The position numbers and the translations under genes are program-made. From a virus (lineage: Duplodnaviria > Heunggongvirae > Uroviricota > Caudoviricetes): 64,000 nt of DNA. The stretch lies in IMG/VR virus record IMGVR_UViG_2832576359_000003, positions 26,348 through 90,347 of that record. One strand, 5' to 3'. Shown piece by piece: positions 10,914-62,908 of the stretch. A model generated the notes under the pieces. That model searched no databases. It saw only the letters and a program-made list of their open reading frames with translations, and was not told the DNA's origin. Positions within the stretch are counted from its first letter, which is position 1. Each line of letters starts with the position of its first letter.

Positions 10914-10949
10914 GGCGGCCACACTAGCGGTAGTCTGCACGATTCGCAA

Positions 10950-26119: not shown

Positions 26120-26556
26120 GCTAGGGCGACAAGGGGCCTCGCGCCCTGACAGCAGAGTCTGCCGAGAACGTCGCGCGCGCGGCGCCGAGGCGAACGTCGA
26201 TGGTGTGGCCGCATCGGTAGGCGGGATCCGGGCTCTGCTGTGAGGGTGGAAGGTACGGCGGCTTCAAAAATGTGACCTCCGGTGTGCGGGTTCGAGTCCC
26301 GATCGCTGGCCGAGACTGAAGTTGGTAGACGCAGACGAAATAGCCATGTGCGAAACGTCGGAGCACGGCTGGTGTGCAGTTGGAACGCACACCCGAGGTC
26401 ACCCTCATCGAACTGCGCTTGCATCGCAGTCCACCAGTTGGCAGCGTCGGGAGACGCCCCCCGTCAGCACGAGTGCTGCGGTCTGTGTCTGATCCTATCG
26501 GGTCCATACCGCAGTAGTTTTGCATTGGTCTCCTACGGCTTCCCCGGTCGAAGGAT

Positions 26557-36154: not shown

Positions 36155-38125
36155 TTAAGCGGCCGCGGCAGCACGCAACTCGTGCGCGAAATTAGCGCGG
36201 ATGATTGCGGCGGCGACCGGCGGGCAGACGCTGTTGCCGATCATGCGGACCTGAGCCGACTTGGAAAGGCGCTTGCCGTTGTGCTCGGGGTCGAGCACGT
36301 ACGAATCGGGGAAGCCCTGGGCACGCGCGAGCTCGCGCGGCGTGAGCATGCGCATGCCGATATCGACGATGGCGTAGTCCTCGCCGTGGATCGTCACGAG
36401 ACCGAGCCGGTCTTTCGTCGGGATCGTGTGCATCGGGTCGCGCAGATCCTGATGCTGGCCGCCTTCGCTGTAGTACTTGATCAGGAAGGCGCGCACCTCG
36501 GCGTGATGCAGTCCACCGGCGCTTACCGTGTGGAGCGGCTCGGCGACCGGTTGCGCGCCGCCGTTGTTGCGCAGCTTCACGAGGTGCGACACGGCGATCG
36601 CCGAATCGGCCTTCGCGGTGATTGTGGCAGCGGGCTCGCTCGCGTCGCGCGGCCGAGACTGACCAGCGCGGCCGCCACAGCCGACGATCTGAGCGGTGAC
36701 GAGCGCGTGGTGATCCTGCGTCGTGACCGTGCTCATCGGGTATGCGAGGTCCGCGCCGGGCGTTTCATTACCGCCGTAGTGCTTCGCGAGGAAGGCGGAC
36801 ACGAGGGCGTGCTTCGCGCCGCCCGCGACGACGGTGCCGAGTGGCTTGTCGATACCCGGCGCGCGCGGCGCCTGCCCGGCGCGCTCGCCGTATCCCGTCT
36901 GAATCAGCGTTGCGGCGACGATCTGCTGCTGGCCGCCGCTCGCAGTGATCGTGCTCAGCGGCGCTTTTGCGGATCGACCGGCCTTAACGCCCACGCGTTC
37001 CTTGTTGTGCTGCGCGAGGAATGCAGTAACGAGCGCTTGCTCGCTGCGGTTCGCGCCCGTGACGGTCGCGAGCGGTGCGTCGGCGCGCGCGCCGCGGTCT
37101 GAGCCCTGGTGCGTGACGTGCATCAAGGTCGGCGCGACCATCGCAAGGCTTCCACCGCGCGGATACGCGGTGATCGTGCGCAATGGTTCGCTCCCGCTGT
37201 GGACCGTGTCGCGGCCGTTGTAGTGCGCAATCGGAACGATGAAAGGGTCGGCGCTGTTCACGACGAACTTCATGATGCCGCGCGCGATACGCCGCAGCGT
37301 CGCATCCTTGAGCGGGCGATCGCGCTCGAAGATCGAGGGGCACGGGATCGACCAGTCGATGCATTCGGCCGCGGTGCGGTACGGCGCGAGCGCGCCGCGC
37401 GCGACGGCGTCCGAGTTCGGCGCGCCGTGCGTGGGCGCGGGCCAAACGATCGGAAGCCCATCGCGGCGCGCGAACAGATAGAGGCGCTTGCGAATCGTCG
37501 GCGTGCCGAAGTCGCACGCGCGCAGCACGCGCCATTCGACCTTGTATCCGAGCCCCGCGTAGAGTCGCTCCATCGGGAAGTCGGCGCCGAGCGTCTCGAA
37601 GATCTCGGGCACGTCCGGGTGCTCAGGCGACAGGCCGGACGAGAGCGCATCGACGAACGCGCGGAACGTGCGGCCTTTCTCGGCCTTGATCGGTTGGCCG
37701 TGCTCGTCGACCGGGCCCCAATCCTGGAACTCCTCGACGTTTTCGAGCGCGAGGCAGCGCGGCACCTGGAAGGTCCCCCACTTCAGGGCGATCCAGGCCA
37801 GCCCGCGGATCTTCTGGTCGCGCGGCTTGCCGCCCTTCGCCTTCGAGTGATGCTTGCAATCGGGGCTGAACCAGGCAAGCCCGATCGGCATCTGGTTCGT
37901 GATGAAGCCCGGGTGCACCGCAAAGACGTCTTCGCGATAGTGCCGCGTCGTCGGGTGGTTGGCCGCGTGCATCGCGAGCGCTTCGCCGTCGTGGTTGATG
38001 GCGATATCGACCGGGCGCCCGAAGGCCATCTCAATGCCCGTGCTCGCGCCGCCGCCGCCGGCGAAGTTATCCACGATGAGTTCGTGCCCCAAGTCGAGCT
38101 CGAAACTGATCTCGTCGCGCTTCAT
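36155..38125 (-). CDS. DNA cytosine-5 methyltransferase with 8 tandem ~35-aa repeats in the variable region
   Basis: Motif I DNFAGGGG, PC-like SPDCKHHS, ENV(EEF) motif, C-terminal MIGNSVCPPVAAAI. Repeat unit PLxTITAxG..HALVTAFLAKHYG occurs 8 times between roughly aa 300 and 580. Confidence 0.7.
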   Translation of the reverse strand: MKRDEISFELDLGHELIVDNFAGGGGASTGIEMAFGRPVDIAINHDGEALAMHAANHPTTRHYREDVFAVHPGFITNQMPIGLAWFSPDCKHHSKAKGGKPRDQKIRGLAWIALKWGTFQVPRCLALENVEEFQDWGPVDEHGQPIKAEKGRTFRAFVDALSSGLSPEHPDVPEIFETLGADFPMERLYAGLGYKVEWRVLRACDFGTPTIRKRLYLFARRDGLPIVWPAPTHGAPNSDAVARGALAPYRTAAECIDWSIPCPSIFERDRPLKDATLRRIARGIMKFVVNSADPFIVPIAHYNGRDTVHSGSEPLRTITAYPRGGSLAMVAPTLMHVTHQGSDRGARADAPLATVTGANRSEQALVTAFLAQHNKERVGVKAGRSAKAPLSTITASGGQQQIVAATLIQTGYGERAGQAPRAPGIDKPLGTVVAGGAKHALVSAFLAKHYGGNETPGADLAYPMSTVTTQDHHALVTAQIVGCGGRAGQSRPRDASEPAATITAKADSAIAVSHLVKLRNNGGAQPVAEPLHTVSAGGLHHAEVRAFLIKYYSEGGQHQDLRDPMHTIPTKDRLGLVTIHGEDYAIVDIGMRMLTPRELARAQGFPDSYVLDPEHNGKRLSKSAQVRMIGNSVCPPVAAAIIRANFAHELRAAAAA

Positions 38126-42027: not shown

Positions 42028-43278
42028 GTGACGACCCTCCACCTGGGTGACTGCCTCGCGGTGCTCGCCGGCATGCCCGACGCCTCGTTCGATTCGATCG
42101 TCACCGATCCGCCGTACCACCTGACGAACAACGGGGGCGGCCCCGCGCGCGGCTCGGACAACGCGTACACGCGTGCGCGCGCCGGCGCCTCGTCGCGTGG
42201 CTTCATGGGCCTCGAATGGGACGGCGGTGATATCGCCTTCCGCCCGGACGTGTGGCGCGAGTGCTTGCGCGTGCTCAAGCCCGGTGGTCATCTGCTCGCG
42301 TTCTCGGCCGCGCGCACGTACCACCGGATGGCCTGCGCGATCGAGGACGCGGGCTTCGAGGTCCGCGACCAGGTCATGTGGATCTATTCGTCCGGCTTTC
42401 CAAAGTCGAAAAACCTCGACGGCGAGTGGGAGGGGTGGGGCACTGCGCTCAAGCCCGCGCACGAGCCGTTGTGCCTGGCGCGCCGGCCACTCGAGGGGAC
42501 GGTGGCCGAGAACGTCGCGCGCTATGGCGTTGGTGCTCTGAATATCGACGGTTGCCGTGTCGCGTCCGACGAGCTGGTCGCTCGCATCGAGCACGCCGAC
42601 ACCGGCGCGCAGCGTGGCTACGGCGGCGGCATACGCGGGGGCACGCGCCGATCGGCTGGCACCGATGGCCGCTGGCCCGCCAACGTCATGCACGACGGCT
42701 CCGACGCCGTTCTGGCCGCGTTCCCGTCGGCGCCCGGTCAGCAGGGGCGTGCCGTCAACGATGGGGCTGCCGCGTCGAACAGCGTCTACGGCGCGATGCG
42801 CAACGTTACGGCCGCGCCGGCGCCGCGCGTTGAAGTGGACACGTCCGCCGCGCGCTTCTTCTATTGCGCGAAGGCGTCGCGCGCGGACCGCAACGCGGGC
42901 TTGCCGTCAGGCGACGTGCCGGCGGTGTCGCAGGACTCGACGATGCGCGCTTGCGAGACAGCCGATTGGGCCGCGCGCAATGGCAACCATCACCCGACCG
43001 TCAAGCCGACATCGCTGATGCAGGAGCTTTGCCGCTTGGTCACGCCACCCGGTGGCCACGTCCTGGACCCGTTCATGGGTTCGGGATCGACTGGCCGTGG
43101 CGCCGTGCTCGAGGGGTTCGAGTTCAGCGGCATCGAGCTTTCCGCCGCATACCACGCGATCGCGCGCGCCCGGATCGACGACGCCGCGCGGGCTCGCGCA
43201 GAGCTTGTCCGCGCCGCCGCTGATGAATCCCGCGCGCGCTCGCAACTGGATCTCTTTGAGGTGCCCGATGTCGTGTGA
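42028..43278 (+). CDS. DNA methyltransferase, N6-adenine/N4-cytosine family (beta class)
   Basis: DPPY motif near the N-terminus (IVTDPPYHL) and FxGSG near the C-terminus (DPFMGSGSTG). Confidence 0.75.
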   Translation: MTTLHLGDCLAVLAGMPDASFDSIVTDPPYHLTNNGGGPARGSDNAYTRARAGASSRGFMGLEWDGGDIAFRPDVWRECLRVLKPGGHLLAFSAARTYHRMACAIEDAGFEVRDQVMWIYSSGFPKSKNLDGEWEGWGTALKPAHEPLCLARRPLEGTVAENVARYGVGALNIDGCRVASDELVARIEHADTGAQRGYGGGIRGGTRRSAGTDGRWPANVMHDGSDAVLAAFPSAPGQQGRAVNDGAAASNSVYGAMRNVTAAPAPRVEVDTSAARFFYCAKASRADRNAGLPSGDVPAVSQDSTMRACETADWAARNGNHHPTVKPTSLMQELCRLVTPPGGHVLDPFMGSGSTGRGAVLEGFEFSGIELSAAYHAIARARIDDAARARAELVRAAADESRARSQLDLFEVPDVV

Positions 43279-44640: not shown

Positions 44641-44964
44641 GTGAGAAAGGTTTTCAAGTACGAGGTCGCGCGACGCGGCCAAGAGCCTACGGTGCTCCGT
44701 CTTCCGGGGTCTGCAACGCTATCGCGCGTCGACGTGCAAGACGGCCGCTTCATGGTCTGGGGGGGCGTCCCGACCGGTTTGCCGGCTGACACCGAATTCG
44801 AGGTGTTCGTGGTCGGCACTGGCGATCCGATCCCCGACGACGTCTTCGTGTTGAACACGTTCTTCGAAGGGCCTTTGGTGTGGCACGCGTGCGTACGCAT
44901 CCTCGCCGTCCCGTCGCACCTTCACGTCGGAAAGACGCACAGCGGGGTGACGCATGGTTGCTGA
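44641..44964 (+). CDS. Hypothetical protein (107 aa, GTG start)
   Basis: GTG preceded by a GAGAGGG RBS-like sequence. The N-terminal extension of the long ORF is rejected. Confidence 0.35.
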   Translation: MRKVFKYEVARRGQEPTVLRLPGSATLSRVDVQDGRFMVWGGVPTGLPADTEFEVFVVGTGDPIPDDVFVLNTFFEGPLVWHACVRILAVPSHLHVGKTHSGVTHGC

Positions 44965-46363
44965 CCAACACGGCTTTACGTTGCGTTCGATCAGCGACCT
45001 GCTTCCGTACGCGCGGAACTCCCGCACGCATAGCGACGACCAGGTCGCGCAGCTCGCCGCGTCGATCGATGAGTTCGGGCTGGTCGGCGCGATCGTCGTG
45101 CGCGACGGCACGATCGCGAAGGGGCACGGCACGCTCGCCGCGGTGCGAAAGCTGATCGAGGCGGGGAAGGGCATCTATCCGCCGCCGGGCCGCTCGCAGG
45201 GCGCTGATGCCTATCCAAATGGCCTTGTGCCGGCGATCGATGCGTCGGGTTGGTCTGATGCGCAGTTCCGCGCGTACGTCATCGCGGACAACAAGCTCGC
45301 GCTGAACGCCGGGTGGGATCTGGACATGCTCCGGATCGAACTCGAGGAGTTGCAGACCGAAGGCTTCGATCTCTCGCTGACGGGCTTCGAGCTCGACGAG
45401 ATCAAAGACCTTCTCACGCCCGAGCAGCTCGACCCGAACGGCAAGGACCCCGATGCCATTCCAGATGTGCCGCCCGATCCGCATTCGGTGCTCGGGGATG
45501 TGTGGATCCTGGGCGCGCACCGGGTGATGTGCGGCGACTCCACGATGCTGGATTCGTGGGACACGCTGATGGCCGGCGAGATGGCCGATATCGTCTGGAC
45601 CGATCCGCCGTACAACGTCGCTTACGAGGGCGTGGCCGGCAAGATCAAGAACGACGATATGGGCGACGAGCAGTTCGCGCAATTCCTGCTTGACGTCCAC
45701 ATCGCGCTGTTCTCGATCATGAAGCCCGGTGCCGCCATCTATGTCGCGCACGCGGATTCCGAGGGCTACAACTTCCGCAGGGCGTTCAAACAAGCGGGGC
45801 TCAAGCTGGCCGGCTGCCTGATCTGGCGCAAAGACCAGTTCGTCCTTGGCCGCTCGGACTATCAGTGGATGCACGAGCCAATCCTTTACGGCTGGAAGCA
45901 GGGCGCTGGGCACCGCTGGTTTGGCGGACGCAAGCAAACCACTGTGCTCGAGTATGGCGAGGGCTCTCCGTTCGAACAGCAGGCCGACGGTCGCTGGGTC
46001 GTGCGCGTGGGGAATCAGACGTTCGTCGTCGACGGCGCCGCGAAGGTTGAGCGCATGGAGTCGTCGCTCGTGTTCCACGAAAAGCCCGCGCGCTCGGCGC
46101 TGCATCCAACCACCAAGCCAGTCGGCCTGGTCGCGAAGTTCCTGCGCAACAGCGCGCGCCACAACGACATCGTCGTCGACGCGTTCGGCGGCTCCGGATC
46201 GACGCTGATCGCGTCTGAAGAAATGGGCATGTGCGCACGCCTGATGGAGCTTGACCCCAAGTTCGTCGACGTGATCTGCCAGCGCTACTACGCATTCACC
46301 GGCCGCGTGCCGGTCAACGCTCGCACAGGCGAGGAATTCCCCGTGAAGGAGAAGCAGCAGTGA
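44954..46363 (+). CDS. ParB-like nuclease domain fused to N6/N4 DNA methyltransferase
   Basis: N-terminal ParB/Srx-like block (LLPYARNSRTHSDDQVAQLAASIDEFGLVGAIVV). MTase motifs DPPY (VWTDPPYNV), HPTTKP and GGSGST. Confidence 0.75.
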   Translation: MVADQHGFTLRSISDLLPYARNSRTHSDDQVAQLAASIDEFGLVGAIVVRDGTIAKGHGTLAAVRKLIEAGKGIYPPPGRSQGADAYPNGLVPAIDASGWSDAQFRAYVIADNKLALNAGWDLDMLRIELEELQTEGFDLSLTGFELDEIKDLLTPEQLDPNGKDPDAIPDVPPDPHSVLGDVWILGAHRVMCGDSTMLDSWDTLMAGEMADIVWTDPPYNVAYEGVAGKIKNDDMGDEQFAQFLLDVHIALFSIMKPGAAIYVAHADSEGYNFRRAFKQAGLKLAGCLIWRKDQFVLGRSDYQWMHEPILYGWKQGAGHRWFGGRKQTTVLEYGEGSPFEQQADGRWVVRVGNQTFVVDGAAKVERMESSLVFHEKPARSALHPTTKPVGLVAKFLRNSARHNDIVVDAFGGSGSTLIASEEMGMCARLMELDPKFVDVICQRYYAFTGRVPVNARTGEEFPVKEKQQ

Positions 46364-47960: not shown

Positions 47961-48671
47961 ATGTTCAAGAGCTTTCCAAAGAACGCTACAGGCCGCGATT
48001 TCGTCGTCGGTGATATCCACGGTGCCTACAGCCGTCTCGAAGCCGCCATGGCCCGCATATCGTTCGACGCGTCGAACGATCGCCTGTTTTCTGTGGGTGA
48101 TTTGATCGATCGCGGGCCGGAGTCGGAGCGCGTGCTTGAGTTCCTCGCGCAGCCGTGGTTCCACGCGGTTCGCGGCAATCACGAAGCCGTCGCCATCGAC
48201 TACGCCCGCGGCGAGGTTTCGGATGAGGATCAGACGCAGCACGGCGGATCGTGGTTCGTCGGAATGCCGCAGCTCGCGCGCACGGCCTACGTCGACGCCT
48301 TCGATGTGCTGCCCAATGGCATCGAGATCGACATCGGCGACGAACTCCGTGTCGGCATCGTGCACGCCGACTGTCCGCTGGCGCACTGGGACGACTTCAA
48401 AGCCCGGGCAGGGGAAGGCTTCGATTCGCGTGATCGCGAGGCGCTTCTCAGCGCTTCGATGTGGTCACGCGCGCGCGTCAAACATGGGGATACCACATGG
48501 GTTGACGGTGTCGCCGCGGTGTTTGTTGGGCACACGCCGGTAAAGAGCGTGCTCGAGCTGGGCAACGTCGTGCATATCGACACGGGTGCCTTTCTCGAAG
48601 GCCGACCCCTGACGGTTATTCAACTGCGGCCGGCCGACGGCCTCGTCTACCAGGTGGCGGCGCAGGTATGA
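47961..48671 (+). CDS. Ser/Thr protein phosphatase (lambda PPase-like metallophosphoesterase)
   Basis: GDIHG, GDLIDRG and GNHE metal-binding motifs. Confidence 0.8.
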   Translation: MFKSFPKNATGRDFVVGDIHGAYSRLEAAMARISFDASNDRLFSVGDLIDRGPESERVLEFLAQPWFHAVRGNHEAVAIDYARGEVSDEDQTQHGGSWFVGMPQLARTAYVDAFDVLPNGIEIDIGDELRVGIVHADCPLAHWDDFKARAGEGFDSRDREALLSASMWSRARVKHGDTTWVDGVAAVFVGHTPVKSVLELGNVVHIDTGAFLEGRPLTVIQLRPADGLVYQVAAQV

Positions 48672-48935: not shown

Positions 48936-49526
48936 ATGATCGTGTTTCTTCTCGCTTTGAACTTCGGTATCAGCTGGCTTAACTGCTGGGTGGTCGGCGG
49001 CATCTGGGCCGAGTCCCGCGCGCTCGGCGGTTTCTCGCGCGTGCTCGCGTGGTGCGGCGCCACGCAGGCCGCGATCGGCTTCAGCAGCGTGATCGGGTTC
49101 GTGCTCGGCTATGTGCTGTTCGCGAGCGGACATATGCCGCCCAAGGTCGCGCACGGCGCCGCGGCGCTTTGGTATTTGCTGGTGATCATTCCCGCGCTCG
49201 GTACCGGCCTGATCATCACCATCGAGTCATGGATCATCGCGTTCCGCACGCGCAGCATCCTCGACATGGGGTCCGCGACCTACAACACGTTTTCCATGGC
49301 CTACAACGTCTACCAGGCCGCAGATGGCGGGATTTTCGACGCGCTTGGCGACGTGGGCGATCTCTTCGACGACAACGATGCGTGGCCGATCATGCTCGCG
49401 GTCGTGCTCGTCGCGGTGGCGCTCGCCGGCGGCATATGGCTCACGTACGTGCTGATCGGCAAGTACGCGGGACGGCTTCCTCTCCCGGCGCGCGGCGCGT
49501 CGGCGCCCATCGTCGCGGGGCACTGA
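48936..49526 (+). CDS. Polytopic membrane protein
   Basis: 4-5 predicted TM helices. Start placed at MIVFLLALNF. Confidence 0.45.
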   Translation: MIVFLLALNFGISWLNCWVVGGIWAESRALGGFSRVLAWCGATQAAIGFSSVIGFVLGYVLFASGHMPPKVAHGAAALWYLLVIIPALGTGLIITIESWIIAFRTRSILDMGSATYNTFSMAYNVYQAADGGIFDALGDVGDLFDDNDAWPIMLAVVLVAVALAGGIWLTYVLIGKYAGRLPLPARGASAPIVAGH

Positions 49527-50413
49527 TGGGCTGGAAGCACGACGCTCTCGCGCGGGACCTCGCGGACCATCTCTCGGCAGCGACAGATCGGATGGTCTGG
49601 ACCGACATGCAGCTCGGGCCCGCGGGCTCGCCGCGCCCGGACGTGTACGCCGTGCCCAAGTCATACGCGAAGTTCACGCCGATCGCCTACGAATGCAAGA
49701 TCAGCGTCGCCGACTTCCGGCGCGACGTGACGGCGGGGAAGTGGACGAAATATCTGTCGTACGCGGCCGGCGTCGTCTTCTGCGTGCCCCAAGGGCTCAT
49801 AGGGAAGGCGGATATCCCCCACGGGTGCGGGCTCATGGTGCGCGGCGCCGAGGGCTGGCACACGGTCAAGGGTCCCACGCTGCGCGCCGTAGACAACCTC
49901 CCGCTTGCGGCGTGGCAGAAGCTGCTGATCGACGGGGTGGGGCGTCAGCGCGCGGAGATCCGCGACCGGGCGTCATCCGTGTGGGGGATGTCGGAGCAGG
50001 CCCGGACCCGGCTCGGCGACACGGTCATGCGCGCCGTGCAGGACCACGCGCGCGCGACGACGCGCCTTCGGCAGGCTACGGAGCAGCTCGAGGCGGCGGC
50101 CAAGGACGCGCAGCGCGAGCGCGACCGGGTCGTGAAGGATGCGGTCGATGCCGCGAATCGGGAAGCCGCGCGTATCGATGAGGGACGTCGCGCGCTCTGC
50201 GATGTGCTCGGCCTCGAGCCTACGTCCAGCGCGTACGCGATTGCGCGCGCAGCGACCGACGTCGCGCACCGGCTCAATCGTGACGATGAAATCGTGAGAC
50301 TGCGACGCGAACTCGACCGGGTGCGCGCTGCGGTAACCGCCGGCCTTGAGCCGCTGCCCGACGTGAAAGTGATTGAGGAGCCAGATGACCACGTATCAGA
50401 AATTTCTGCATAG
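49526..50413 (+). CDS. MmcB-like PD-(D/E)xK nuclease domain protein with coiled-coil tail
   Basis: MQLGPAGSPRPDVYAVPKSYAKFTPIAYECKISVADF fits the MmcB-family D...E.K core. Confidence 0.45.
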   Translation: MGWKHDALARDLADHLSAATDRMVWTDMQLGPAGSPRPDVYAVPKSYAKFTPIAYECKISVADFRRDVTAGKWTKYLSYAAGVVFCVPQGLIGKADIPHGCGLMVRGAEGWHTVKGPTLRAVDNLPLAAWQKLLIDGVGRQRAEIRDRASSVWGMSEQARTRLGDTVMRAVQDHARATTRLRQATEQLEAAAKDAQRERDRVVKDAVDAANREAARIDEGRRALCDVLGLEPTSSAYAIARAATDVAHRLNRDDEIVRLRRELDRVRAAVTAGLEPLPDVKVIEEPDDHVSEISA

Positions 50414-50621
50414 GACCGTTCTCGCGGTCGCCGCGCTCGGTTCAATGACCGTGCTCGCTGTGACTGGCCACCAGATCTTCGCGCTGTGCGCGCTCTGCGT
50501 GTTCTTCTCGGCGGCCGACATCTGATGAATCCGCTGTTTCTCTGCCTCTGGTGGCTCTGCTGGGTGTACGGGCCGAGCGCGCCGGAGCTTCCCGAAATTC
50601 CCCCGTCTGCGAAGGTGAAGG

Positions 50622-51752
50622 TTGATGAGTGAAAAGAAAGTGATTGCGCCGTCGATCGGCCGCAAGGTCTGGTACGTGCCGCTCGCACGCGATGGCGAGA
50701 TCAAAACGAACGACGAGGTTCAGCCGCTCGACGCCACGGTCATCTACGTGTGGTCCGACAGCATGGTCAACCTCGACGTGACGGACCATGTCGGGGCGCG
50801 CCACGTTCGCACGAGCGTCACGCTGATCCACCCCGGGGACGCCGAATTGCAATGGGGCGGCTTCGCGAAATGGATGCCCTACCAGGTCGGCCAAGCGAAC
50901 AAGGAAGATGGCCGTCGAGTCGTGGGAATCGACCCCGTCGGAAAGCTCGAGACGACGGAATCGGCGCCGCGCGGCGGCGACGCGCAGACGCGCATCGGCC
51001 CGAGCGTTGCTCGCGAGGCCATCGAGGCGCTGTTCGAGCGCGTCGACTGGAAATTTGAACAGCCGTCCGGGAGCACGTCGACGTTCGCGCATGCGTTCCT
51101 CGACGGCTTCTATCTCGCGTCCGGTCATTCGGCGTGCGTGTCGCCGGAAAATTTCAACGCTTTCATGGGGCGCAATATCGCGCTGGAACAGGCGCGCCAG
51201 AAGGTCTATGACAAGCTGTGGGAACTGGAGGACTACCTGCTGCGCGCGCGCATCAACGGGCGCTTGGGCGACATCACGTACGCGCTTGGCGAGGTGACCG
51301 TCAGAATCGACCAAGATATGCGGTGCCACATCTGGACCCCGGGCGAAGTGACGATCGATGGCAATGTGAACTGCACCGGCTCTGTGGTCGCCGCGGCCGG
51401 TACGTTGGCGCCCGAAAAGCATTCGACTGGCGTCGCGGCGCGCCCGCAAGCGCATTCCGACATGGATATCGGCGGCGCGATCGCGGCGCTGAAGGATGGC
51501 GAGCGCGTCGCGCGGCGCGGCTGGAACGGAAAGGACATGTGGCTCGCGCTGTCGCCGGGCGTGAGTGCGGTCCCTGCCGACAAGTTCTGGGCTCGGCCGA
51601 ACCGAGCCTACGCGGCGTCGACCGAATCGGGAGCGGCCGACGTGCTGCCCTCTGTGACGATGAAGACCGCGACGGGTGAGATCCTGATGGGCTGGCTCGC
51701 CTCGCAGACGGACTTGCTCGCGAACGACTGGTTCGTGCTGGAAGGGCAGTGA
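50622..51752 (+). CDS. Gp49-like domain + C-terminal DUF2829 (Tad2-like) domain protein
   Basis: Middle block FAHAFLDGFYLASGHSACVSPENFNAFMGRNIALEQARQKVYDKLWELEDYL is Gp49/66-like. C-terminal GGAIAALKDGERVARRGWNGKDMWLAL...DLLANDWFVL is the Trp-rich DUF2829 pattern. Confidence 0.45.
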   Translation: MMSEKKVIAPSIGRKVWYVPLARDGEIKTNDEVQPLDATVIYVWSDSMVNLDVTDHVGARHVRTSVTLIHPGDAELQWGGFAKWMPYQVGQANKEDGRRVVGIDPVGKLETTESAPRGGDAQTRIGPSVAREAIEALFERVDWKFEQPSGSTSTFAHAFLDGFYLASGHSACVSPENFNAFMGRNIALEQARQKVYDKLWELEDYLLRARINGRLGDITYALGEVTVRIDQDMRCHIWTPGEVTIDGNVNCTGSVVAAAGTLAPEKHSTGVAARPQAHSDMDIGGAIAALKDGERVARRGWNGKDMWLALSPGVSAVPADKFWARPNRAYAASTESGAADVLPSVTMKTATGEILMGWLASQTDLLANDWFVLEGQ

Positions 51753-51875
51753 TGTATCTGAGCCTCCACGAGCTGTTCGACGTCGTCCTGGGTTGCGTCG
51801 GGGTCGGCTTTGTCGCCGGCGCGGCCGCCGCCATCGCCTTCTTGGTGCGACGCGCCCGCCGCGTCCGCTGATCCT

Positions 51876-53135: not shown

Positions 53136-53385
53136 GCTTGAATGCCGCGCGCGCTTCCTTGCGCGACATGTAGAGCTCGTTTTGCGAGGCGAGGACGCGA
53201 ATCTTGCCGGACAAAATCACGCAATCGAATCCGTTTTCGTCGGGCTCGCGCGTTTCGATGAGTTCGACCTTGCACACGACCTGGTGGCATTGCATGTTGA
53301 GTCCGACCGTGTAGCGCGTGCTGTTTGTGCTTTCCATTTGCGTCTCCGTTGCGTTCTCGATGGTTGAATCATGCGCATCAATCAA
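53131..53385 (-). CDS. Hypothetical protein
   Basis: 84-aa ORF. Confidence 0.3.
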   Translation of the reverse strand: MIDAHDSTIENATETQMESTNSTRYTVGLNMQCHQVVCKVELIETREPDENGFDCVILSGKIRVLASQNELYMSRKEARAAFKP

Positions 53386-53453
53386 AACACAGTCAACCGC
53401 TATTCGTGGTCGTCGTGACAGTAGCCTCGAAGCGAATTCATATGAGGCTTCGC

Positions 53454-55919
53454 ATGACCGAAATGCTCCATGCGGTAAGGCCGCGCGCTGTGCTGCTGCT
53501 CAAAGCGGTATCGAAGAAGCAGGTCTACGTGCCTGCGTACACCCGCCACGACGGCACGGTGGTGGTGGGCCACTACGCCACGGTGAATGTCGCCATCGAC
53601 CACAGCGACACGAAGGTCTTGGCGGGCCGAGGTTCGCACTCTCAACGCCAGGCGCACGCAAAACTCGCGCAGCACGACTGGTTCAACGCGATGGATCACG
53701 GGGACCGCGTGAATCTTCTGCTTCACCACGCCACGAAGATCCAAGACAAGGCATCGCGCGCGGCCGCCGTGTCAATGTGGCGAACCGCGGCGCTGGCTGG
53801 CCGCAACCCGACGCCGGCGCAGTGGCGCGCGTTCCATGCGCTCCCCAGCGATCGCAAGCTCGCGCTGCTCGACGAGGTGCGGCAGACCGGGCGCACTGAT
53901 CATCTGAACTCGCCGCCCGTGGCAGCGGACGCCGAGCATCCGAATTCGCCGGCCACGCCGACGCCAGTTCCCTCGGCCGCACCTCCGCGCGTCGTCGCGG
54001 CGGAAACGTCCGGGCCGGAATCTCGCGCGCGCGAAACCGACACGCCGAGCGACGGCGATACGAAGACGGTCGACGGCGTGACGTACGTCCTGCAGGGCGG
54101 CCGCTGGCATCGTCAGACGCCCGAGAGCGAACAGGCCGAACAGCCGGCCTCCACGCCGCCCGAGCAGCCTGTTGCGCCAACGCCCTCGGCGGCCGACCGC
54201 GATCGGCACGCCGGGGCGATGCGCGCGGTCGTTGCGCCGACATTCCCCGAGACGAGCGCCTCGAATGCAGGGTGCACGCGCCGGGTCGCCGCACTGCGTG
54301 CCATGGCCGAGGCGGGAGATGTCGACGGGATCTCGAGTTTCTCGACGTCGCGCACGCGCGCGAACTACGCCCGCGTCGACGACTACCGGGCCGCGCTGCT
54401 GGCCGCGGCGCAGAACCTGACGCCTGCCGAGGCTCAGCGCGCCGTTGAAACACCGCCGCCGGCGCCCCCGCAGCTCTCCGGCGCGAACATGCAAAACACG
54501 GCGCTGCTCGCCGCTCAACGCAAAATCAACATGCTGCACGACGCCGCGCGCGCGGCCGACCCGGTTGCAGCGATTCAGGCGATCAACACGTCCCGCGGCA
54601 ACCGGTACCTGGACGCGGCCGACAATTACAAGCGCGCGCTGCTTGCACACTTCGGCGTCGACATCGCTGGCGCGCCCGTGCCGGGCGTCAGTGCCGAAGG
54701 AGAAGCGTCGCGCGCGCCGCGAATCGTTGCGGCTCGCGAGGCACCAGCGCCGGCCGCGGCCCCGCCGCGCGAGCAGCCCGCGGAGACCGCTGTTCCCGAG
54801 GCGGAGAGCCCGCCCCCGTTGCCCGACTCACAGAACCCCGCGATCGCCGCGAACCCGCTCGGGTACTCCGAGGTCGTGCTCGGGTTCGTGCCGCGCCCCA
54901 ACGTGCCGTTGAGCGTGCGCACGAACATGCCTGGTGTGCAGTTTCCCGATCCGCGCATGGCCGAGTTGAACCGCCGGTACCTCGCGCAGCCGACCTCGCT
55001 GCAGCAGCGCGCTCGCGAATATCAGGCGGGAAATTGGGCGCCGCGCACACCTGAGGTGATCGCGGCGGAGGCAGCAGCTGCGGCCGAGCGCCAGCGCGCC
55101 GAGCAAGAGGCTATCCGGCGCGCCGCGGCGGCGGTGGAGGCGCGCCTAGGATCCATCGAACAGATCTTCCGGCCGCGCGCGGCGGTCGGTGCAAACGTCC
55201 GCGTCCTCAACTCGCACATCTCCGACGTCGATGCGCAGCGCGTGCTCGGTGTTCCGAAGGAGCAGGCTGACGTCATGTTCAAGCAGATGGTCGTCGACTA
55301 CGGCTTCGGCGTGACGTTCGCCATCACTGCGACCGCCTCGCCGGCGCAAATCGAGGTCCAGTATCACGGATCGGACGGAACATCGATCACGCGTCGATTC
55401 AAACGAGACACCGCCGGTGGCCCGCTGTCGGTGTACCACGCGTATTTCAAGGCCGGGAGCACGGGCGGCGGGTCAGGAAAACAGCTGTTCCGCAACTCGA
55501 TGGGGGTCTACAAGGCGCTCGGCGTGGCCGAGGTATCTGTGTACGCCAATATCGACGTGGGGGGCTATGCCTGGGCGAAGTTCGGTTATCTGCCGAAGAA
55601 TTGGGGAAACCTCCGCGCGACGCTGCGCAATCGCTTGTCATCGATCGCAAACGGGTCAATCTCGCGCGCGACGCAAGGGCGCCGGTCGGTGCAGTTGCCC
55701 GCACTGGATCCGTCGATCGTTGCAAAAATCAACACCGTGCTCGACAGCGACTCTCCGGAGACGCTCTGGGTTATCGCCGACATGAAGGTCGGCGAGCGCG
55801 CGGTCGGGAAGGAGCTTTTGCTCGGCACGGATTGGAACGGCGTGATGAAGCTGTCCCACGAGCGAACCATGCTAAGGTTCGCGAAGTACGTCAGTCCCGA
55901 TAGGAGTCAAGCACAGTGA
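53454..55919 (+). CDS. Large multidomain protein with GNAT-like C-terminal domain
   Basis: N-terminal LLLKAV...YTRHDGTVVVGHYA motif shared with the next gene. Pro/Ala-rich linkers. C-terminal YHAYFKAGSTGGGSGKQLFRNSMGVYKALGV resembles GNAT motif A. Confidence 0.45.
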   Translation: MTEMLHAVRPRAVLLLKAVSKKQVYVPAYTRHDGTVVVGHYATVNVAIDHSDTKVLAGRGSHSQRQAHAKLAQHDWFNAMDHGDRVNLLLHHATKIQDKASRAAAVSMWRTAALAGRNPTPAQWRAFHALPSDRKLALLDEVRQTGRTDHLNSPPVAADAEHPNSPATPTPVPSAAPPRVVAAETSGPESRARETDTPSDGDTKTVDGVTYVLQGGRWHRQTPESEQAEQPASTPPEQPVAPTPSAADRDRHAGAMRAVVAPTFPETSASNAGCTRRVAALRAMAEAGDVDGISSFSTSRTRANYARVDDYRAALLAAAQNLTPAEAQRAVETPPPAPPQLSGANMQNTALLAAQRKINMLHDAARAADPVAAIQAINTSRGNRYLDAADNYKRALLAHFGVDIAGAPVPGVSAEGEASRAPRIVAAREAPAPAAAPPREQPAETAVPEAESPPPLPDSQNPAIAANPLGYSEVVLGFVPRPNVPLSVRTNMPGVQFPDPRMAELNRRYLAQPTSLQQRAREYQAGNWAPRTPEVIAAEAAAAAERQRAEQEAIRRAAAAVEARLGSIEQIFRPRAAVGANVRVLNSHISDVDAQRVLGVPKEQADVMFKQMVVDYGFGVTFAITATASPAQIEVQYHGSDGTSITRRFKRDTAGGPLSVYHAYFKAGSTGGGSGKQLFRNSMGVYKALGVAEVSVYANIDVGGYAWAKFGYLPKNWGNLRATLRNRLSSIANGSISRATQGRRSVQLPALDPSIVAKINTVLDSDSPETLWVIADMKVGERAVGKELLLGTDWNGVMKLSHERTMLRFAKYVSPDRSQAQ

Positions 55920-57149: not shown

Positions 57150-59768
57150 GTGCAGTCTGTCGAGTGTGAGTTTCCTGAACTGTTCGAAGGGCAGGAACGC
57201 ATCGCGAGTAGCCTCGCGCGTTTCAATCTCGTGCACGGCGGCGAGCAGTGCGGCAAGAGCACGACGGCGATCGACGTCCTGCTGCTCTCGCAATTTGGCG
57301 CGCTCAACGGGTATCACGTCGCCTTCTGCGTGCCCGACGAGGCCGCTGTAACGGTCGCCAAGCGGCGCGTCTTCTCCCTCATTCACCACCTCGTCGACGG
57401 GCGTCCCGATCGGCCCCGCGTCGAACTAATCACGGGTGGCTCGATTCGCTTCGTGCGGCTCGATGACGAGCACCTTGAGCTTTGGGACCACCTCGCGCTG
57501 ATCGTCGTCGACGACGCGCAGCTCGTGCCGCGCATCGAGCCGCTCTGGTATGACGTGCTCGAACCTGCGCTCGGGCGCTCGCGCGGCTCGGCCTGGATCT
57601 TCGGAAAGCCCCGCGGCGCGCGCGACGGATTCGCGAGCCTCGCGCGGAACGCCGCCGGCGGCGTGCTATGGGCGGCATACCGCATGCCCACGGAAGAAAA
57701 CCCGTATTTCGACCGCGCGCGCCTCGAAGCGGACCGCGAGAAATTCACAGCAGACCAGTTCGCGCAGGAACGCGAGGGCGTCTTCGTCGACGTGCCGGTG
57801 GCGCTCACCGCGTCACAGTCGATCATCAAGCCTGGCGAGACGTTCCGCGAGTGGTGCATCCGGCTCGGCGAAGAAGGCCTCCACGTCGACGAAAAGCCAT
57901 TCACGCTCGACGATCGCCCGGCGATGCACTTCGTCTACGACCTGATCCCCTCGACCGCCGAAGAGGCGTTCCAGCGCATCGACGTGATCATGAAGTGCAC
58001 GCAGGTCGGGTTCACGGTGTTCGAAATGATGGCGATGCTGTATCTCGCGCTTCGCTTCGCGCCGGCGAAGATCGGCAGCTTCATGCCGTCGAAGGATCTC
58101 GCCGCCGGCAAGTCGTCGAATCGGTTCATGGGCATCGTGCGCACGATGCCGGCCGTGCACTCGATGATGACCGAGACGGCCGCCGAGCACGGCAAGTCCG
58201 GCGAGGGCAACGTCCTTACGCGGAACCTCGGCAACTCCATCTTCTATTTCCTCTGGACGTCCGGCAAGACCACGACCGAGTCGAACCCGATGGACGTGGT
58301 TTCGTTCGACGAAGTGCAGGAAATGAAGATCGCGGCGATGGAGAAAACCCGCGAGCGTATGTCGGCGTCGGCGATCCGCTACACGCTGATGGGATCCACC
58401 GCGAATTGGCCGGACGAGGATATCCACTGGTGGTTCAAGAAGGGCACGCAGTACCAATTTCACACGGACTGCCCCTCATGCCACACAGGGCAGGTTCTCG
58501 ACGATCACTTCCCCAAGTGCGTGGGCTTTGATCCCACGGCGCTGCGTTGGAACCCGCGCGAGGCCGAGGCGGGCATCGTGGGCGAGTACCGGTACCGCTG
58601 CCACGCGTGCGGCGGATGGATCGATGACCCGCAGATCGGCCGATGGATCGCGAAATTCCCAGAGGCTTCGATCCGCTCGCTCCACTTCCCACAGTTCCTG
58701 TCCCCGACGATCTCGCCGCGCGAAATGTACGAGGCGTATCGCGACGCCAAGGACATGAAGAACTTCTACAACCGGAAGCTCGGAAAGCCGTACGTCGATC
58801 CCACACAGGTTCCGGTCAACCTCGAGATGCTCGCCGCGTGCGCGGCGCTCGGGATGAAGCTCGGCGTCGTGTGGGAGGAGCGGGGCCGCGACACGTACAT
58901 GGGCATCGACCAGATGGGGCAATTTAACGCGGTCTTGATCGCGAAGCGGCTGCCGACTGGTCACATGGCGATTATCCACGCTGAGGAAGTCTACGACGCA
59001 GACCCGTTCGCGCGCTGCTCGGTGCTGCTCGAGCGCTATGGCGTGCGCGTTTGCGTCGTCGAAACGCTGCCGAACTACAACGACGCGAAGCGCTTCGCCA
59101 ACCGCCACCCGGGCATCGTGTTCCTCGCCGGCTACGGCAACATGGAAAGCGACATGCTGCGGTGGGGCGACGATCGGGCGAACCGCTCGGAGCGCCGCAC
59201 GGACGACGAGGACCGCGACCAGTACACGGTCACGCTCGACCAATACAAGTCGATGCAGGTTGCCTTCGCGCGGATCTCGAAGCTGGTTTGCGTGTTTCCT
59301 GATCCGAAGGCCCTTATCCAGGAGCTGACCGACGACGGGGACAACGGCAAGGGCGAGCGATCGTTGCGCCCGATCCTCGAGGAGCGCGTGTTTAAGCACT
59401 TCACGCGCACGGCGCTGATCGCCGAGCGCGACGAGGAGGAAAAGAAATTCCGGCGCCGCGTGGTCAAGGTCGGTATCGACCCTCACTTCTCGTACGCGTT
59501 CATGCTGCTCAACGTCGCATGGGCTCGCGCGCACGGTACGGCGTCGTTTCTATTCCCTGACGAGGCGGAGGAGGTTGAAGTGCCCCAAGGAAGCATTGCG
59601 ATCGCGCAGACGCGCGTTCTGGCGGATATCAAGCGGGAGACTGAGGAGGCGGGGGCAGAGAAGTGCGCCGGCTGCGCATCGTTCGACGAGGAGCGGGGGT
59701 GGTGCGAGGAGCGCGAGGTGCTGGTGAGGCCGAGCAGCCCCGCGTGCATCTTGTTTATGGATCGGTAG
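57150..59768 (+). CDS. Terminase large subunit (GpA family) with ~250-aa N-terminal extension carrying a second P-loop
   Basis: GpA-like Walker A KCTQVGFT near aa 283 and a Zn ribbon (CPSCHTGQ...CHACGG). Additional N-terminal Walker A GGEQCGKST and Walker B LIVVDDAQ. No stop codon over 872 aa. GTG start. Confidence 0.6.
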   Translation: MQSVECEFPELFEGQERIASSLARFNLVHGGEQCGKSTTAIDVLLLSQFGALNGYHVAFCVPDEAAVTVAKRRVFSLIHHLVDGRPDRPRVELITGGSIRFVRLDDEHLELWDHLALIVVDDAQLVPRIEPLWYDVLEPALGRSRGSAWIFGKPRGARDGFASLARNAAGGVLWAAYRMPTEENPYFDRARLEADREKFTADQFAQEREGVFVDVPVALTASQSIIKPGETFREWCIRLGEEGLHVDEKPFTLDDRPAMHFVYDLIPSTAEEAFQRIDVIMKCTQVGFTVFEMMAMLYLALRFAPAKIGSFMPSKDLAAGKSSNRFMGIVRTMPAVHSMMTETAAEHGKSGEGNVLTRNLGNSIFYFLWTSGKTTTESNPMDVVSFDEVQEMKIAAMEKTRERMSASAIRYTLMGSTANWPDEDIHWWFKKGTQYQFHTDCPSCHTGQVLDDHFPKCVGFDPTALRWNPREAEAGIVGEYRYRCHACGGWIDDPQIGRWIAKFPEASIRSLHFPQFLSPTISPREMYEAYRDAKDMKNFYNRKLGKPYVDPTQVPVNLEMLAACAALGMKLGVVWEERGRDTYMGIDQMGQFNAVLIAKRLPTGHMAIIHAEEVYDADPFARCSVLLERYGVRVCVVETLPNYNDAKRFANRHPGIVFLAGYGNMESDMLRWGDDRANRSERRTDDEDRDQYTVTLDQYKSMQVAFARISKLVCVFPDPKALIQELTDDGDNGKGERSLRPILEERVFKHFTRTALIAERDEEEKKFRRRVVKVGIDPHFSYAFMLLNVAWARAHGTASFLFPDEAEEVEVPQGSIAIAQTRVLADIKRETEEAGAEKCAGCASFDEERGWCEEREVLVRPSSPACILFMDR

Positions 59769-60338: not shown

Positions 60339-62072
60339 TCATGGCATGATCCCGGTCCAGTCGATGCTGCCTGGCTCGGGGCACTCCCACGACATGGCAA
60401 GGCGATTGCGCATTTGCGCAAGTGTCGTCGTCCGTACCAGTTTCCCATCACGAAAGATCGGCTTAAGCGAGCCGGTATCGAACACGGTAGGGTCTTGCCG
60501 GTCGTACAGCACGTAATCGTCGTCAACGCGGCGCACGCACACCAATCCCTTCGCGGACTTCTTCGTGCCGTCGTCGGTTGCCGGATCCTTGTAAATCTCT
60601 ATCGACTCGCCGCCGACCTCGGCATAGATCGCCTTCAGCGCGAAGCCGAATGTATCGCGTGACACCATGTTGTACGTGTACGAGCCGATGCCGAAAACGA
60701 CGTTGTTCGACGCGAAGCCCTTGTCTGCCAGACGGCGCAGGATGCGCACGCCACGCTCGAGTGTGATCGAATCGCCGTAGATCAGGCCTACGTGACTGTC
60801 GAGTACCTTGAAGCCCTTGTCTGTTCCCGTGCCGCCGTAGATATCCCAGAGGCATTCGACCGCGCCCTTGCGCTCGGCAGCCGTGATCCGACGACCCATG
60901 CCTGCGCGTCCGCACGTGACATATTTTCCTTCTTCGTCGACAACCGGTTGCCCATCGTCGTCGCACATAAGCTCGTCATTTCGGTAACCCGTCAGAATCT
61001 TCACCGGGTCGCCCGAGTCGGGCCTGAACACCACCTTGCACTGGCCGAGCGCATTTGGCCGGCGCGCGAGAATCTCGTCTTTGAGCTCGCGCGCGACGAC
61101 CGTGATCGTGTTCCAGAAATCGAACGAATCGGCGACGATCGAAATCATGCCTTCGGGATAGTCCTCGGTCACAAGCTCGCGGATCACTTCCTGCTCGGCG
61201 ACGCACCGCATTTGCTTCTCGGTGAAAATCTCGTTTCCGCGCTTGCGCTTGAGAGCCGCGAGCACGCGCAGAATCCGAAGCGTCATCACGCTGTGCTCGG
61301 TCGCCGGGATCGAACCCCCGATCAGTTCCTTATCTGCGTCGGCGCCGTAGAAGTCCTCGGCATAGTCGATAGCGGGGATCGTGTCGGTGCCGGTGAATGA
61401 GAGCAAGTGACCGAGGCCGCAACGCATCGCATCGTGCACGCCGCTCATGCCGCGCATCGAGAAATCGTGGCCTTGCCAGCTAACGAAGTCCTCGGGAGCA
61501 CCCGTGAGCCGCGCGAAGTACGTGAGCAGCTTGCGGAATTCAAAGGCAATCGTCGCGACCGTCGACGGCTTCCAGTTCTCGCAGCTGAATAGCGTCTCGA
61601 AGTACGTTGCGAGCCACGAATGCTCGCCTCGGGCAATAAAGATGATCGGCGGCACCTTGATATTCACGCGAGAGCCTTCGGGGAGTGCCCGGATCTCGAG
61701 CGGCAAATATCCGAGGTCGTGCAAGGCCTCGAGCTTCGCCGTCGACACTGCATCCGGTCCGAGTGCGGTGTCCATGCGGCGCTTGAACTTGCGCACGGCC
61801 TTGGCCTTGGGAACGTCGAAGAATCGCTTCCCGAACAGGTCAATGACGAATTCCTGAATCCAGCCCTGCTGGCCGAGCCACACGACCTTTCCGTCGAACA
61901 GCTGCGGCAGGACCGGCGCGTACTTAGCCGAGCGCGGCGTGAAGTTCGCGACGAGCATGTCTAATCCGGCCGGGTACATGCCCGGGTGCCCGGTCTTGTA
62001 GAAGTCGGCGAGGTTGAACGGCACGAGGCCGTTTTGCTTCTCGAGTACGTCGTGATCGATGGGTGCGTTCAT
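60339..62072 (-). CDS. Nicotinamide phosphoribosyltransferase family protein (NadV/NAMPT; possibly Namat-like)
   Basis: N-terminal NLADFYKTGH(P)GMYP (NAMPT TDSYK-type motif), GTDT, IADSFD and FGIGS blocks typical of the NAMPT family. Confidence 0.75.
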   Translation of the reverse strand: MNAPIDHDVLEKQNGLVPFNLADFYKTGHPGMYPAGLDMLVANFTPRSAKYAPVLPQLFDGKVVWLGQQGWIQEFVIDLFGKRFFDVPKAKAVRKFKRRMDTALGPDAVSTAKLEALHDLGYLPLEIRALPEGSRVNIKVPPIIFIARGEHSWLATYFETLFSCENWKPSTVATIAFEFRKLLTYFARLTGAPEDFVSWQGHDFSMRGMSGVHDAMRCGLGHLLSFTGTDTIPAIDYAEDFYGADADKELIGGSIPATEHSVMTLRILRVLAALKRKRGNEIFTEKQMRCVAEQEVIRELVTEDYPEGMISIVADSFDFWNTITVVARELKDEILARRPNALGQCKVVFRPDSGDPVKILTGYRNDELMCDDDGQPVVDEEGKYVTCGRAGMGRRITAAERKGAVECLWDIYGGTGTDKGFKVLDSHVGLIYGDSITLERGVRILRRLADKGFASNNVVFGIGSYTYNMVSRDTFGFALKAIYAEVGGESIEIYKDPATDDGTKKSAKGLVCVRRVDDDYVLYDRQDPTVFDTGSLKPIFRDGKLVRTTTLAQMRNRLAMSWECPEPGSIDWTGIMP

Positions 62073-62092
62073 TGTTGTGTCTCTGGTTTGAG

Positions 62093-62908
62093 TTAGACCA
62101 CGGTGCAGCGATCGTCGCTGATCCAGTTGTTACGCGTGAAAACCTGCGCATATCCCTCGAGCAGCACGTCGAGTCCCTTGCTGAAAATGCCGTGTGTGAC
62201 GTAGAGGAAAAGCTGGTGGCGCGTGCCCTGCGTGTCCTGCTTAGCTTTGATGGCGCTCGCCAATTCGATAAAAGTCCGTCCACCGTCGCAGATGTCGTCG
62301 ACGACAAGCAAGGGCAATTCGGGAAGGTCGCCGAGGACCTCGGTGCCCGTGATCTGACCGGTTCGTGTGTCGCGCACCTTGTCCGCAAATACGACTTCCA
62401 GATCGAAGGCCGAGGCGAGCTTCAGGACGCGTTTGCGTGCCCCCGCATCGGGTGCCACTAGCGCGACCTTCGTGCCGATTCGGTCGATCACCGCCGAGAG
62501 AGGCAGAACCGGGTCGGCGATCTGGACACGCTCGAGCAGCGCGGGCACGACGTCGCTGTGCGGATCCTCAATGAGCACGCGGCTGTATTTCTGGGCGTTG
62601 ATCAGGTCACAAAACACCTTGGCGCTCAGCGACTCTCCCCGGTTGGCCACGCGATCCTGGCGTGCATAGGGGACATAGGGCATGTCAAGGATGATGCCGG
62701 CCGCCGGATAGGCGCGGCGCAGCGCGTCAGTGATCATGATCAGCGCCATGACGTCGGCCGAGCTTTTCAGTCCTGCGCTGATCAGCAGCCCGCGGGGCGC
62801 GACGGCGTCTGCCTGAACGGTTGCGTGGATCTCGCCACCGGGGAACGTGAGGGTCTTTACGTCGAGCTTCCTATAGCCTGTTTCGGTAACTACGGATACA
62901 TCGATCAT
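62093..62908 (-). CDS. Ribose-phosphate pyrophosphokinase-family protein (short Prs-like; possibly Adps-like)
   Basis: Prs N-terminal domain pattern and PRPP-binding loop (LLVVDDICDGGRTFIELASA). 271 aa, shorter than canonical Prs. Adjacent to the NAMPT-like gene. Confidence 0.7.
   Translation of the reverse strand: MIDVSVVTETGYRKLDVKTLTFPGGEIHATVQADAVAPRGLLISAGLKSSADVMALIMITDALRRAYPAAGIILDMPYVPYARQDRVANRGESLSAKVFCDLINAQKYSRVLIEDPHSDVVPALLERVQIADPVLPLSAVIDRIGTKVALVAPDAGARKRVLKLASAFDLEVVFADKVRDTRTGQITGTEVLGDLPELPLLVVDDICDGGRTFIELASAIKAKQDTQGTRHQLFLYVTHGIFSKGLDVLLEGYAQVFTRNNWISDDRCTVV

Follow-up and report, generated by a model that had tools for sequence, protein, structure and literature searches.

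The window analysed here is a stretch of 64,000 nucleotides of phage DNA (Caudoviricetes; IMG/VR record IMGVR_UViG_2832576359_000003, positions 26,348 to 90,347), and we report on one of its genes, an open reading frame (ORF) at 50622-51752 on the plus strand, the product of which is probably a sponge for more than one nucleotide signal of bacterial immunity. Our ORF check returns exactly the bounds given in an earlier note on this DNA, which was made from the letters and a list of ORFs, and the peptides quoted there are present in the translation. The G+C content of the genome is 62-66%, and that at third codon positions (GC3) of the ORF is 0.83 overall and 0.73-0.93 across all 30-codon blocks; since it is uniformly high, the ORF is coding throughout. 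The TTG at 50622 is directly followed by an ATG at 50625. The latter is probably the start, giving a product of 375 amino acids (aa), because the spacing of a Shine-Dalgarno-like AAGGTG fits it and the homologues of the protein begin with MS.. or MT...

On the whole, the model of the protein is best explained by three independently folded domains on flexible linkers, namely an N-terminal module (N below), an Acb4 domain and a Tad2-like domain (Table 1). The full-length AlphaFold2 model, a monomer built from a 45-sequence alignment, has a mean pLDDT score (predicted local distance difference test) of 77.5. The middle segment between the two last domains (pLDDT 31-67) is predicted to have three short low-confidence strands (aa 218-238) and a disordered part (aa 246-276), and aa 213-280 have no counterpart in any of 80 homologues. 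A frameshift artefact, or the remains of a different gene, was considered as the origin of this segment and rejected, because blastx in all frames matched only the in-frame end of the Acb4 domain and GC3 stays high (0.73-0.87); an alternative-frame relic is absent.

Table 1. Features of the sponge gene and of the two neighbouring loci discussed in the text, in window coordinates.
Feature	Positions	Strand	Description
Upstream gene ('MmcB-like' in the earlier note)	49526..50413	+	phrog_5429 'DNA repair protein', E=1.3e-13
Shine-Dalgarno-like AAGGTG	50611..50616	+	8-9 nt 5' of ATG 50625; read from the sequence, putative function
Whole ORF	50622..51752	+	376 codons and stop; likely start ATG 50625
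N module	50622..50912	+	aa 1-97; predicted five-stranded Tudor/SH3-like beta-barrel and C-terminal helix with WMPYQxGQA
Linker 1	50913..50987	+	aa 98-122; predicted disordered, pLDDT <50 for 98-116 and 118-122
Acb4 domain (PF13876, 'Gp49/66')	50988..51257	+	aa 123-212; alpha-beta-beta-beta-alpha; Pfam, profile, Foldseek
Lineage-specific middle segment	51258..51461	+	aa 213-280; 68 aa
Tad2-like domain (PF11195/DUF2829)	51462..51743	+	aa 281-374; Pfam, PDB matches, fold, residue map
NARP1-like pair	60339..62908	-	NAMPT/Namat-like 60339-62072 (577 aa) and Prs/Adps-like 62093-62908 (271 aa)

The earlier note had assigned the last ~90 aa to DUF2829, the Tad2 family, and described them as rich in Trp, and both statements hold. 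Once named DUF2829, PF11195 (Tad2-like) scores 73.2 bits on aa 281-372 (E=2.4e-20; cut-off 25 bits) with profile positions 1-72 of 73 aligned, and there are five Trp within the 96 aa. In the PDB, the sequence of the domain matches SptTad2 (8WJD, 2.2e-17), HgmTad2/AcrIIA7 (8KBI, 2.7e-15), 9KZR (2.4e-13), SPO1 Tad2 (8SME, 3e-9) and ModTad2 (9EIB, 3e-9). The predicted fold agrees as well, with Tad2 structures at all of ranks 1-17 when the full-length model is compared with the PDB by Foldseek (probability 1.0, template modelling (TM) score to target 0.54-0.73); pLDDT in the domain is mostly 78-95, with a single dip to ~56 near aa 351-360.

Tad2 proteins are homotetramers with ligand pockets between protomers. 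SPO1 Tad2 contacts 1''-3' glyco-cyclic ADP-ribose (gcADPR), a signal also written 3' cyclic ADP-ribose (3'cADPR), via W25, N26, W73, T78 and D79, and the gcADPR site of HgmTad2 is knocked out by the mutants W21A/N22A and S90A/T92A/D93A. In our MAFFT alignment W301, N302, W358, S361, T363 and D364 keep every direct gcADPR contact of SPO1 together with all five knock-out residues of HgmTad2. HgmTad2 and SptTad2 have a second pocket, which holds cyclic di-GMP (cGG) or cyclic GMP-AMP (cGAMP) and is formed by R31, K46, S47, F70 and N85 in HgmTad2 numbering; the same alignment gives S311, a gap, a gap, V341 and M356 at these positions. We infer that the domain has a gcADPR-type pocket without the cyclic-dinucleotide one, which suggests a division of labour with the Acb4 domain. 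Compared with the known Tad2 proteins (SPO1 gp34.65, HgmTad2/AcrIIA7 and SptTad2), it has the same hidden Markov model (HMM) membership, the same fold and the ligand motifs GWNG and W..SQTD, whereas those proteins typically stand alone with ~90-105 aa and this one makes up the C-terminal third of a protein with 376 aa. Here the beta2-beta5 insertion has an intermediate length, without the HgmTad2 residues of the dinucleotide pocket. A different insertion is seen in Tad2 homologues P0071, P0073-P0076 and P0078, which are split by ~170-250 aa carrying AP2 and HNH_3 endonuclease domains; it is placed directly after the GWNG motif and resembles a homing-endonuclease-type insertion in a sponge gene.

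The fusion partner of the Tad2-like domain had been described as Gp49/66-like in the earlier note. This is right as to the family, for PF13876 (Phage_gp49_66) matches aa 131-210 (45.5 bits, where the cut-off is 27; E=1.1e-11), but the family is not an uncharacterised one. It is founded by anti-CBASS 4 (Acb4) of phage SPO1, a tetrameric sponge that binds four molecules of 3'3'-cGAMP, CBASS being the cyclic oligonucleotide-based antiphage signalling system. All eight of the diverse Acb4 homologues tested bound 3'3'-cGAMP, and the pockets of these sponges, as in Tad2, sit between protomers. A single-sequence phmmer search with the domain found nothing in the PDB; a profile of 15 homologues of it has Acb4 (9E4W) as top match. 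In the model the domain has a dsRBD-like fold, which runs from a helix (131-139) through three strands (142-146, 154-160 and 163-170) to a second helix (180-211), and 9E4W chains occupy 13 of the Foldseek ranks 18-31 with probability 1.0 and TM scores of 0.48-0.56. For the comparison of residues, the SPO1-type sequence was taken from phage CampHawk, which carries exactly the residues named for SPO1 Acb4. The two have the Pfam family, the alpha-beta-beta-beta-alpha order, the ENFNxxxG core and F48, F62, N63 and L89 in common; they are distant in sequence, however, and K36, E49, Y57, T70 and K81 are replaced in the protein studied here.

Acb4-Tad2 fusions are described as frequent (Tal et al. 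2025, bioRxiv 10.1101/2025.07.12.664507), and the one of Pasteurella phage Pm86 abolishes the defence by type I Thoeris as well as that by type I CBASS (bioRxiv 10.1101/2025.07.12.664507). The Pm86 protein, ORF47 (AWY03314.1), aligns to aa 129-374 of ours with 27.6% identity (E=2e-15) and is the best match in the phage database that spans both domains. Here too both sponge domains lie within one uninterrupted ORF, and the same architecture is found in homologues P0002, P0004, P0008 and P0001. Judged by sequence, therefore, the Acb4-Tad2 core is another case of a published and experimentally validated fusion class. The two proteins agree in the order of the domains, Acb4 and then Tad2 in a single ORF, and in the Tad2 residues for gcADPR, and the HgmTad2-type dinucleotide pocket is missing in both. 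They differ in that Pm86 ORF47 has 185 aa and a short linker, while ours adds the N-terminal beta-barrel and a spacer of 68 aa between Acb4 and Tad2 that is unique to it. The activity of the Pm86 fusion was shown by experiment, whereas our protein is known here from its sequence. In addition, two other modules recur as N-terminal partners of Tad2, one with the pattern 'THVSHKQVEAYP...GYLSHSPRAVFEDGY' and one with 'YIGTK..PMTR..GYVSWSP..F..AY' (PF24729 in P0029); the proteins with these modules are P0019, P0025, P0032, P0038 and P0047, and P0034, P0037, P0054, P0069 and P0070. By the logic of fusion, both would be additional candidate anti-defence domains.

The first 97 residues, which the earlier note overlooked, form a separate third domain with the motifs GR.VW and WMPYQxGQA; R14, N50, D55, S65, W84 and Q88 are invariant in it. 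The N module has no Pfam family, its profile has no sequence match in the PDB, and its generic Tudor/SH3-like fold has no specific structural match. These comparisons covered Pfam, the PDB and Sequestin (PF21825). Two other kinds of protein were considered for the module: Tad3-Tad8, from the work of Yirmiya et al., which are reportedly Thoeris inhibitors that bind protein, with a loop inserted into the active site of ThsB, and Lockin, which has a curved, elongated beta-sheet protomer, a cog-like hexamer and phosphate contacts of the K45/K48 type. Sequestin, a short all-helical protein, was considered for the N module and rejected: neither the query nor 16 N domains match PF21825 even at E<=10, and the module is a predicted barrel, not helical. 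The Pfam search of the whole protein likewise gives no Sequestin match.

To give an overall view of the N family, we denote Acb4 by A, Tad2 by T and Sequestin by S. Among the 80 whole-protein homologues, the architectures are T alone (39), A alone (15), N-T (12), N-A (4), A-T (4), T with an AP2/HNH insertion (5) and N-A-T (1, P0001, 341 aa). The N family itself has at least 5,405 matches in a 90%-clustered database, and an exhaustive HMM search finds 4,892 representatives of 50% clusters, 3,064 of them at E<=1e-10. Among its best 267 members, 190 stand alone (mostly with about 95-125 aa) and 44 have unannotated extensions; fusions are found with Tad2 in 12, with Acb4 in 13 (12 N-A and one A-N) and with Sequestin (PF21825) in six, and two are N-N tandems. 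One C-terminal extension of N is an apparently helical family of 22 members (P0084, P0105, P0108, P0201-P0206, P0209 and others), four of which (P0202, P0203, P0204 and P0206) were scanned against Pfam with no match; the same region sits between N and Tad2 in P0003, P0006 and P0011-P0013. Ten N-family proteins in which longer regions are unassigned were also scanned against Pfam; no further family came up, the sole matches being to PF13876 in P0251 and P0324. The fusion screen of Tal et al. searched for Pfam families fused to Tad2 or Acb4, and the N module would have been invisible to it because it lacks a Pfam model.

The association of N with sponges is also found between neighbouring genes. 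HMMs of N, Acb4, Tad2 and Sequestin were run on the six-frame translations of 80 N-encoding IMG/VR loci, which dereplicate to 62 clusters. A sponge domain (Acb4, Tad2 or Sequestin) lies within 1 kb of N in 22 of the 62 clusters (35%), 10 of them in the same ORF, a proportion to be read with a bias in mind, for the 80 loci are those that best match an N copy itself fused to sponges. The sponge partner is always on the same strand, with the orders NA (11), AN (5), NS (3), NT (2), NTA (2) and SN (1). Within the same loci, sponge domains number 0.196 per kb up to 1 kb from N and 0.0038 per kb farther out, so that 24 are observed near N against 0.47 expected, roughly a 50-fold local enrichment. A system to compare with the gene studied here is a Burkholderia ubonensis prophage (locus L005, 2840-4072; Logan SRR1956477), in which consecutive genes encode N-Sequestin, Acb4 and Tad2, directly 5' of TerS, TerL and portal genes; this is a compact anti-signalling island at a pre-terminase position, with the same N, Acb4 and Tad2 modules as in our protein. 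Another combination is known from Pseudomonas phage Ab09, the gp59 of which is an Acb4-Sequestin fusion that forms a tetramer and has gcADPR as well as cGAMP as ligands. Both follow the same logic of combined sponge modules; there, however, the modules are paired differently or spread over two or three genes, while here they are in one gene.

P0001, the other N-A-T fusion, also lies directly 5' of terminase genes, and stand-alone N genes are near terminase or portal genes in phages Sopo (a Xanthomonas phage; protein CAA2393652.1) and PA8. A role of the N family as a head or packaging protein was considered. We hold it unlikely, since the pre-terminase position is taken by sponge genes too and N is repeatedly fused to sponges; this position explains why stand-alone N genes are near packaging genes in Sopo and PA8. 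From this association, the N module would most likely be a further anti-signalling module, binding another immune signal or an immune protein. Tentatively, we extend this to the family as a whole, which may be a large unannotated anti-signalling family of phages, either a new sponge for immune nucleotides or a binder of immune proteins.

Taking these results together, we propose that the protein as a whole counters CBASS- and Thoeris-type immunity as a sponge of several signals, and put the probability of this at about 75%, with the oligomeric state, the ligands and the activity in vivo extrapolated from relatives. The earlier note had proposed a Tad2-like immune-signal sponge, which the HMM match, the predicted fold and the gcADPR residues support; that description was incomplete in overlooking the Acb4 identity of the fusion partner and the N barrel. 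By homology with SPO1 Acb4, the Acb4 domain would form a tetramer and sequester the cyclic dinucleotides of CBASS (of the 3'3'-cGAMP type). By homology with the SPO1, Hgm and Spt proteins, the Tad2 domain would form a tetramer and sequester the gcADPR of type I Thoeris, which would sit in two inter-protomer pockets made from the GWNG and W..SQTD motifs. Dinucleotide capture would be left to the Acb4 domain, since the Tad2 domain is without the insertion-domain residues of HgmTad2 and SptTad2. The long flexible linkers would allow separate tetramers of the Acb4 and Tad2 modules, as modelled for Pm86. In this way one polypeptide, and hence one tetramer, would shut down two signalling immune systems ahead of effector activation.

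Several points weigh against this proposal. The sequence link of the Acb4 domain to 9E4W is weak (E=0.0015 for the profile). Among the 11 residues by which SPO1 Acb4 contacts cGAMP (K36, F48, E49, V56, Y57, F62, N63, I66, T70, K81 and L89), four are identical here (F163, F178, N179 and L207) and two are conservative; the guanine-reading K36 and E49 become T152 and Y164, and the phosphate-contacting Y57, T70 and K81 become V173, I186 and E201. With four of 11 contacts identical and K36 and E49 replaced, the ligand of this domain may differ from cGAMP. The conserved residues of the Tad2 domain, for their part, are no proof of specificity for 3'cADPR, because the ligands of the family vary widely: 3'cADPR, histidine-ADP-ribose (His-ADPR), N7-cADPR, cyclic UMP or CMP (cUMP/cCMP) and cyclic dinucleotides are all bound by one homologue or another. 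Finally, the N module and the 68-aa middle segment, both without an assigned role, might affect assembly.

The low identity at the Acb4 contacts is also what favours a reading in which only the Tad2 domain is active, the Acb4-like and N parts being non-binding scaffolds that raise avidity, solubility or oligomer stability; the generic fold of the N domain, without a specific structural match, points the same way. We nevertheless hold this unlikely. The score of the Acb4 domain lies well over the cut-off of Pfam, its ENFNxxxG core and its fold are retained, the diverse homologues assayed bound cGAMP without exception, and the Pm86 fusion, which is equal to our protein at seven of the 11 contact positions (T152, F163, C172, V173, N179, I186 and L207), blocks CBASS as well as Thoeris. 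As for N, its family is mostly stand-alone (190 of 267), hence with a function of its own.

A multi-signal sponge could also be directed at other signals than proposed, the Tad2 domain targeting His-ADPR of type II Thoeris, N7-cADPR of type IV or the cUMP/cCMP of Pycsar, and N or Acb4 covering type I Thoeris or others. Between them, the homologues of Tad2 inhibit CBASS, Pycsar and Thoeris of types I, II and IV, many of them more than one, and in ModTad2, a binder of His-ADPR and cUMP, the motif (W/N and W..S.(S/T)D) is nearly that of our domain, so that these residues do not discriminate. This assignment is nonetheless improbable in our estimate, for SptTad2 and HgmTad2, which both inhibit Thoeris of type I, are much nearer to the domain (E from 1e-17 to 1e-15) than ModTad2 is (3e-9), and T363 is as in the binders of 3'cADPR, where ModTad2 has S78. 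That the protein is instead an anti-CRISPR of the AcrIIA7 type is highly improbable: the Tad2 domain does match PDB chains that bear the name 'Inhibitor of Type II CRISPR-Cas system'/AcrIIA7 (8KBI, 2.7e-15; 9KZR, 2.4e-13) and some phage records label homologues 'anti-CRISPR protein', but AcrIIA7, which is HgmTad2, binds gcADPR and cGG, its reported inhibition of Cas9 was irreproducible in vitro and in vivo, and the original Tad2 paper argues that DUF2829 proteins are anti-Thoeris.

We now turn to the phage around the sponge gene. The window contains genes for baseplate J, sheath initiator, tail fibre, lysozyme, RecT with PD-(D/E)XK, single-stranded DNA-binding protein (SSB) and TrfA, and a gpA-type large terminase at 57150-59768. 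No close relative of the window is found among 50,697 phage records; in a megablast of 24 kb against phages, the only nearby DNA that matches is ~400 bp of the upstream gene, in two Burkholderia phages. An exact look-up of the protein and exact 38-mer scans of genome and viral collections gave no identical gene. The nearest relatives in both DNA and protein are from Burkholderia, Paraburkholderia and Cupriavidus, and the phage is best explained as one of Burkholderiales type. A TrfA-type plasmid replication initiator (10050-10949, -) in a genome whose baseplate and sheath genes are myovirus-like is a hint of a phage-plasmid way of life.

Two genes for N6/N4 DNA methyltransferases lie 5' of the sponge gene, as do one for a NinI-like phosphatase and one that matches a PHROG named 'DNA repair protein'. 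The last is the gene directly upstream, named an MmcB-like nuclease in the earlier note; the match to PHROG 5429 agrees with a role of that kind, but the MmcB identity is unconfirmed, as searches of Pfam, NCBIfam and the PDB with this gene gave nothing. The methyltransferases of this accessory region, at 42028-43278 (+; N6/N4), 44954-46363 (+; ParB-fused N6/N4) and 36155-38125 (-; C5), are three in number and point to a heavy investment in anti-restriction. The phosphatase, a NinI-like Ser/Thr (calcineurin-like) one at 47961-48671 (+), lies three genes 5' of the sponge gene. In a 2026 preprint, phage phosphatases are reported to counter RES, an NAD+-degrading defence system that defeats NARP1, and the NinI-like phosphatase might belong to the same counter-defence set. 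Closer to the sponge gene, two tiny ORFs, 50373-50525 (+; 50 aa) and 51749-51871 (+; 40 aa), lie on either side of it and have hydrophobic, transmembrane-like sequences; both are putative genes, and the second overlaps the stop codon of the sponge gene. An ORF of 864 aa with high GC3 (53325-55919, +) lies between the sponge and terminase genes and has no match in Pfam or NCBIfam.

The NAD+ module reported in the earlier note is indeed present, 8.6 kb downstream of the sponge gene, where a gene of the NAMPT family (NF006629, 4.9e-150; PF04095, 1.1e-35) adjoins a Prs-like gene (TIGR01251, 8.7e-34). NARP1 consists of Namat, which is specific for ADPR-PP, and the Prs homologue Adps; with ADP-ribose and nicotinamide as starting material it rebuilds NAD+, and it overcomes Thoeris of type I as well as other NADase systems. 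By family match, the pair appears NARP1-like, with a Namat/Nampt-like first enzyme. Its products would repair NAD+ if an NADase effector still fires, and would thus be a second layer against NAD+-depleting effectors such as ThsA of Thoeris.

What is new relative to the published fusion class is the N-terminal beta-barrel together with the unique linker, the Acb4-Tad2 core being already known. That core adds a further example, of Burkholderiales type, of phages stacking sponges against CBASS and Thoeris, and with the NARP1-like module it would make up a layered counter-defence in one genome. The barrel family, with ~100 aa and thousands of members, is found beside, or in one protein with, members of three unrelated sponge families and offers a testable lead; the discovery of Sequestin rested on the same logic of guilt by fusion. 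If the anti-signalling role of N is true, the protein studied here would be a triple-action inhibitor and the stand-alone relatives of ~100 aa a widespread counter-defence gene. An inhibitor function of the N domain would then annotate thousands of phage "hypothetical proteins", and may lead to a new ligand or target in bacterial immune signalling.

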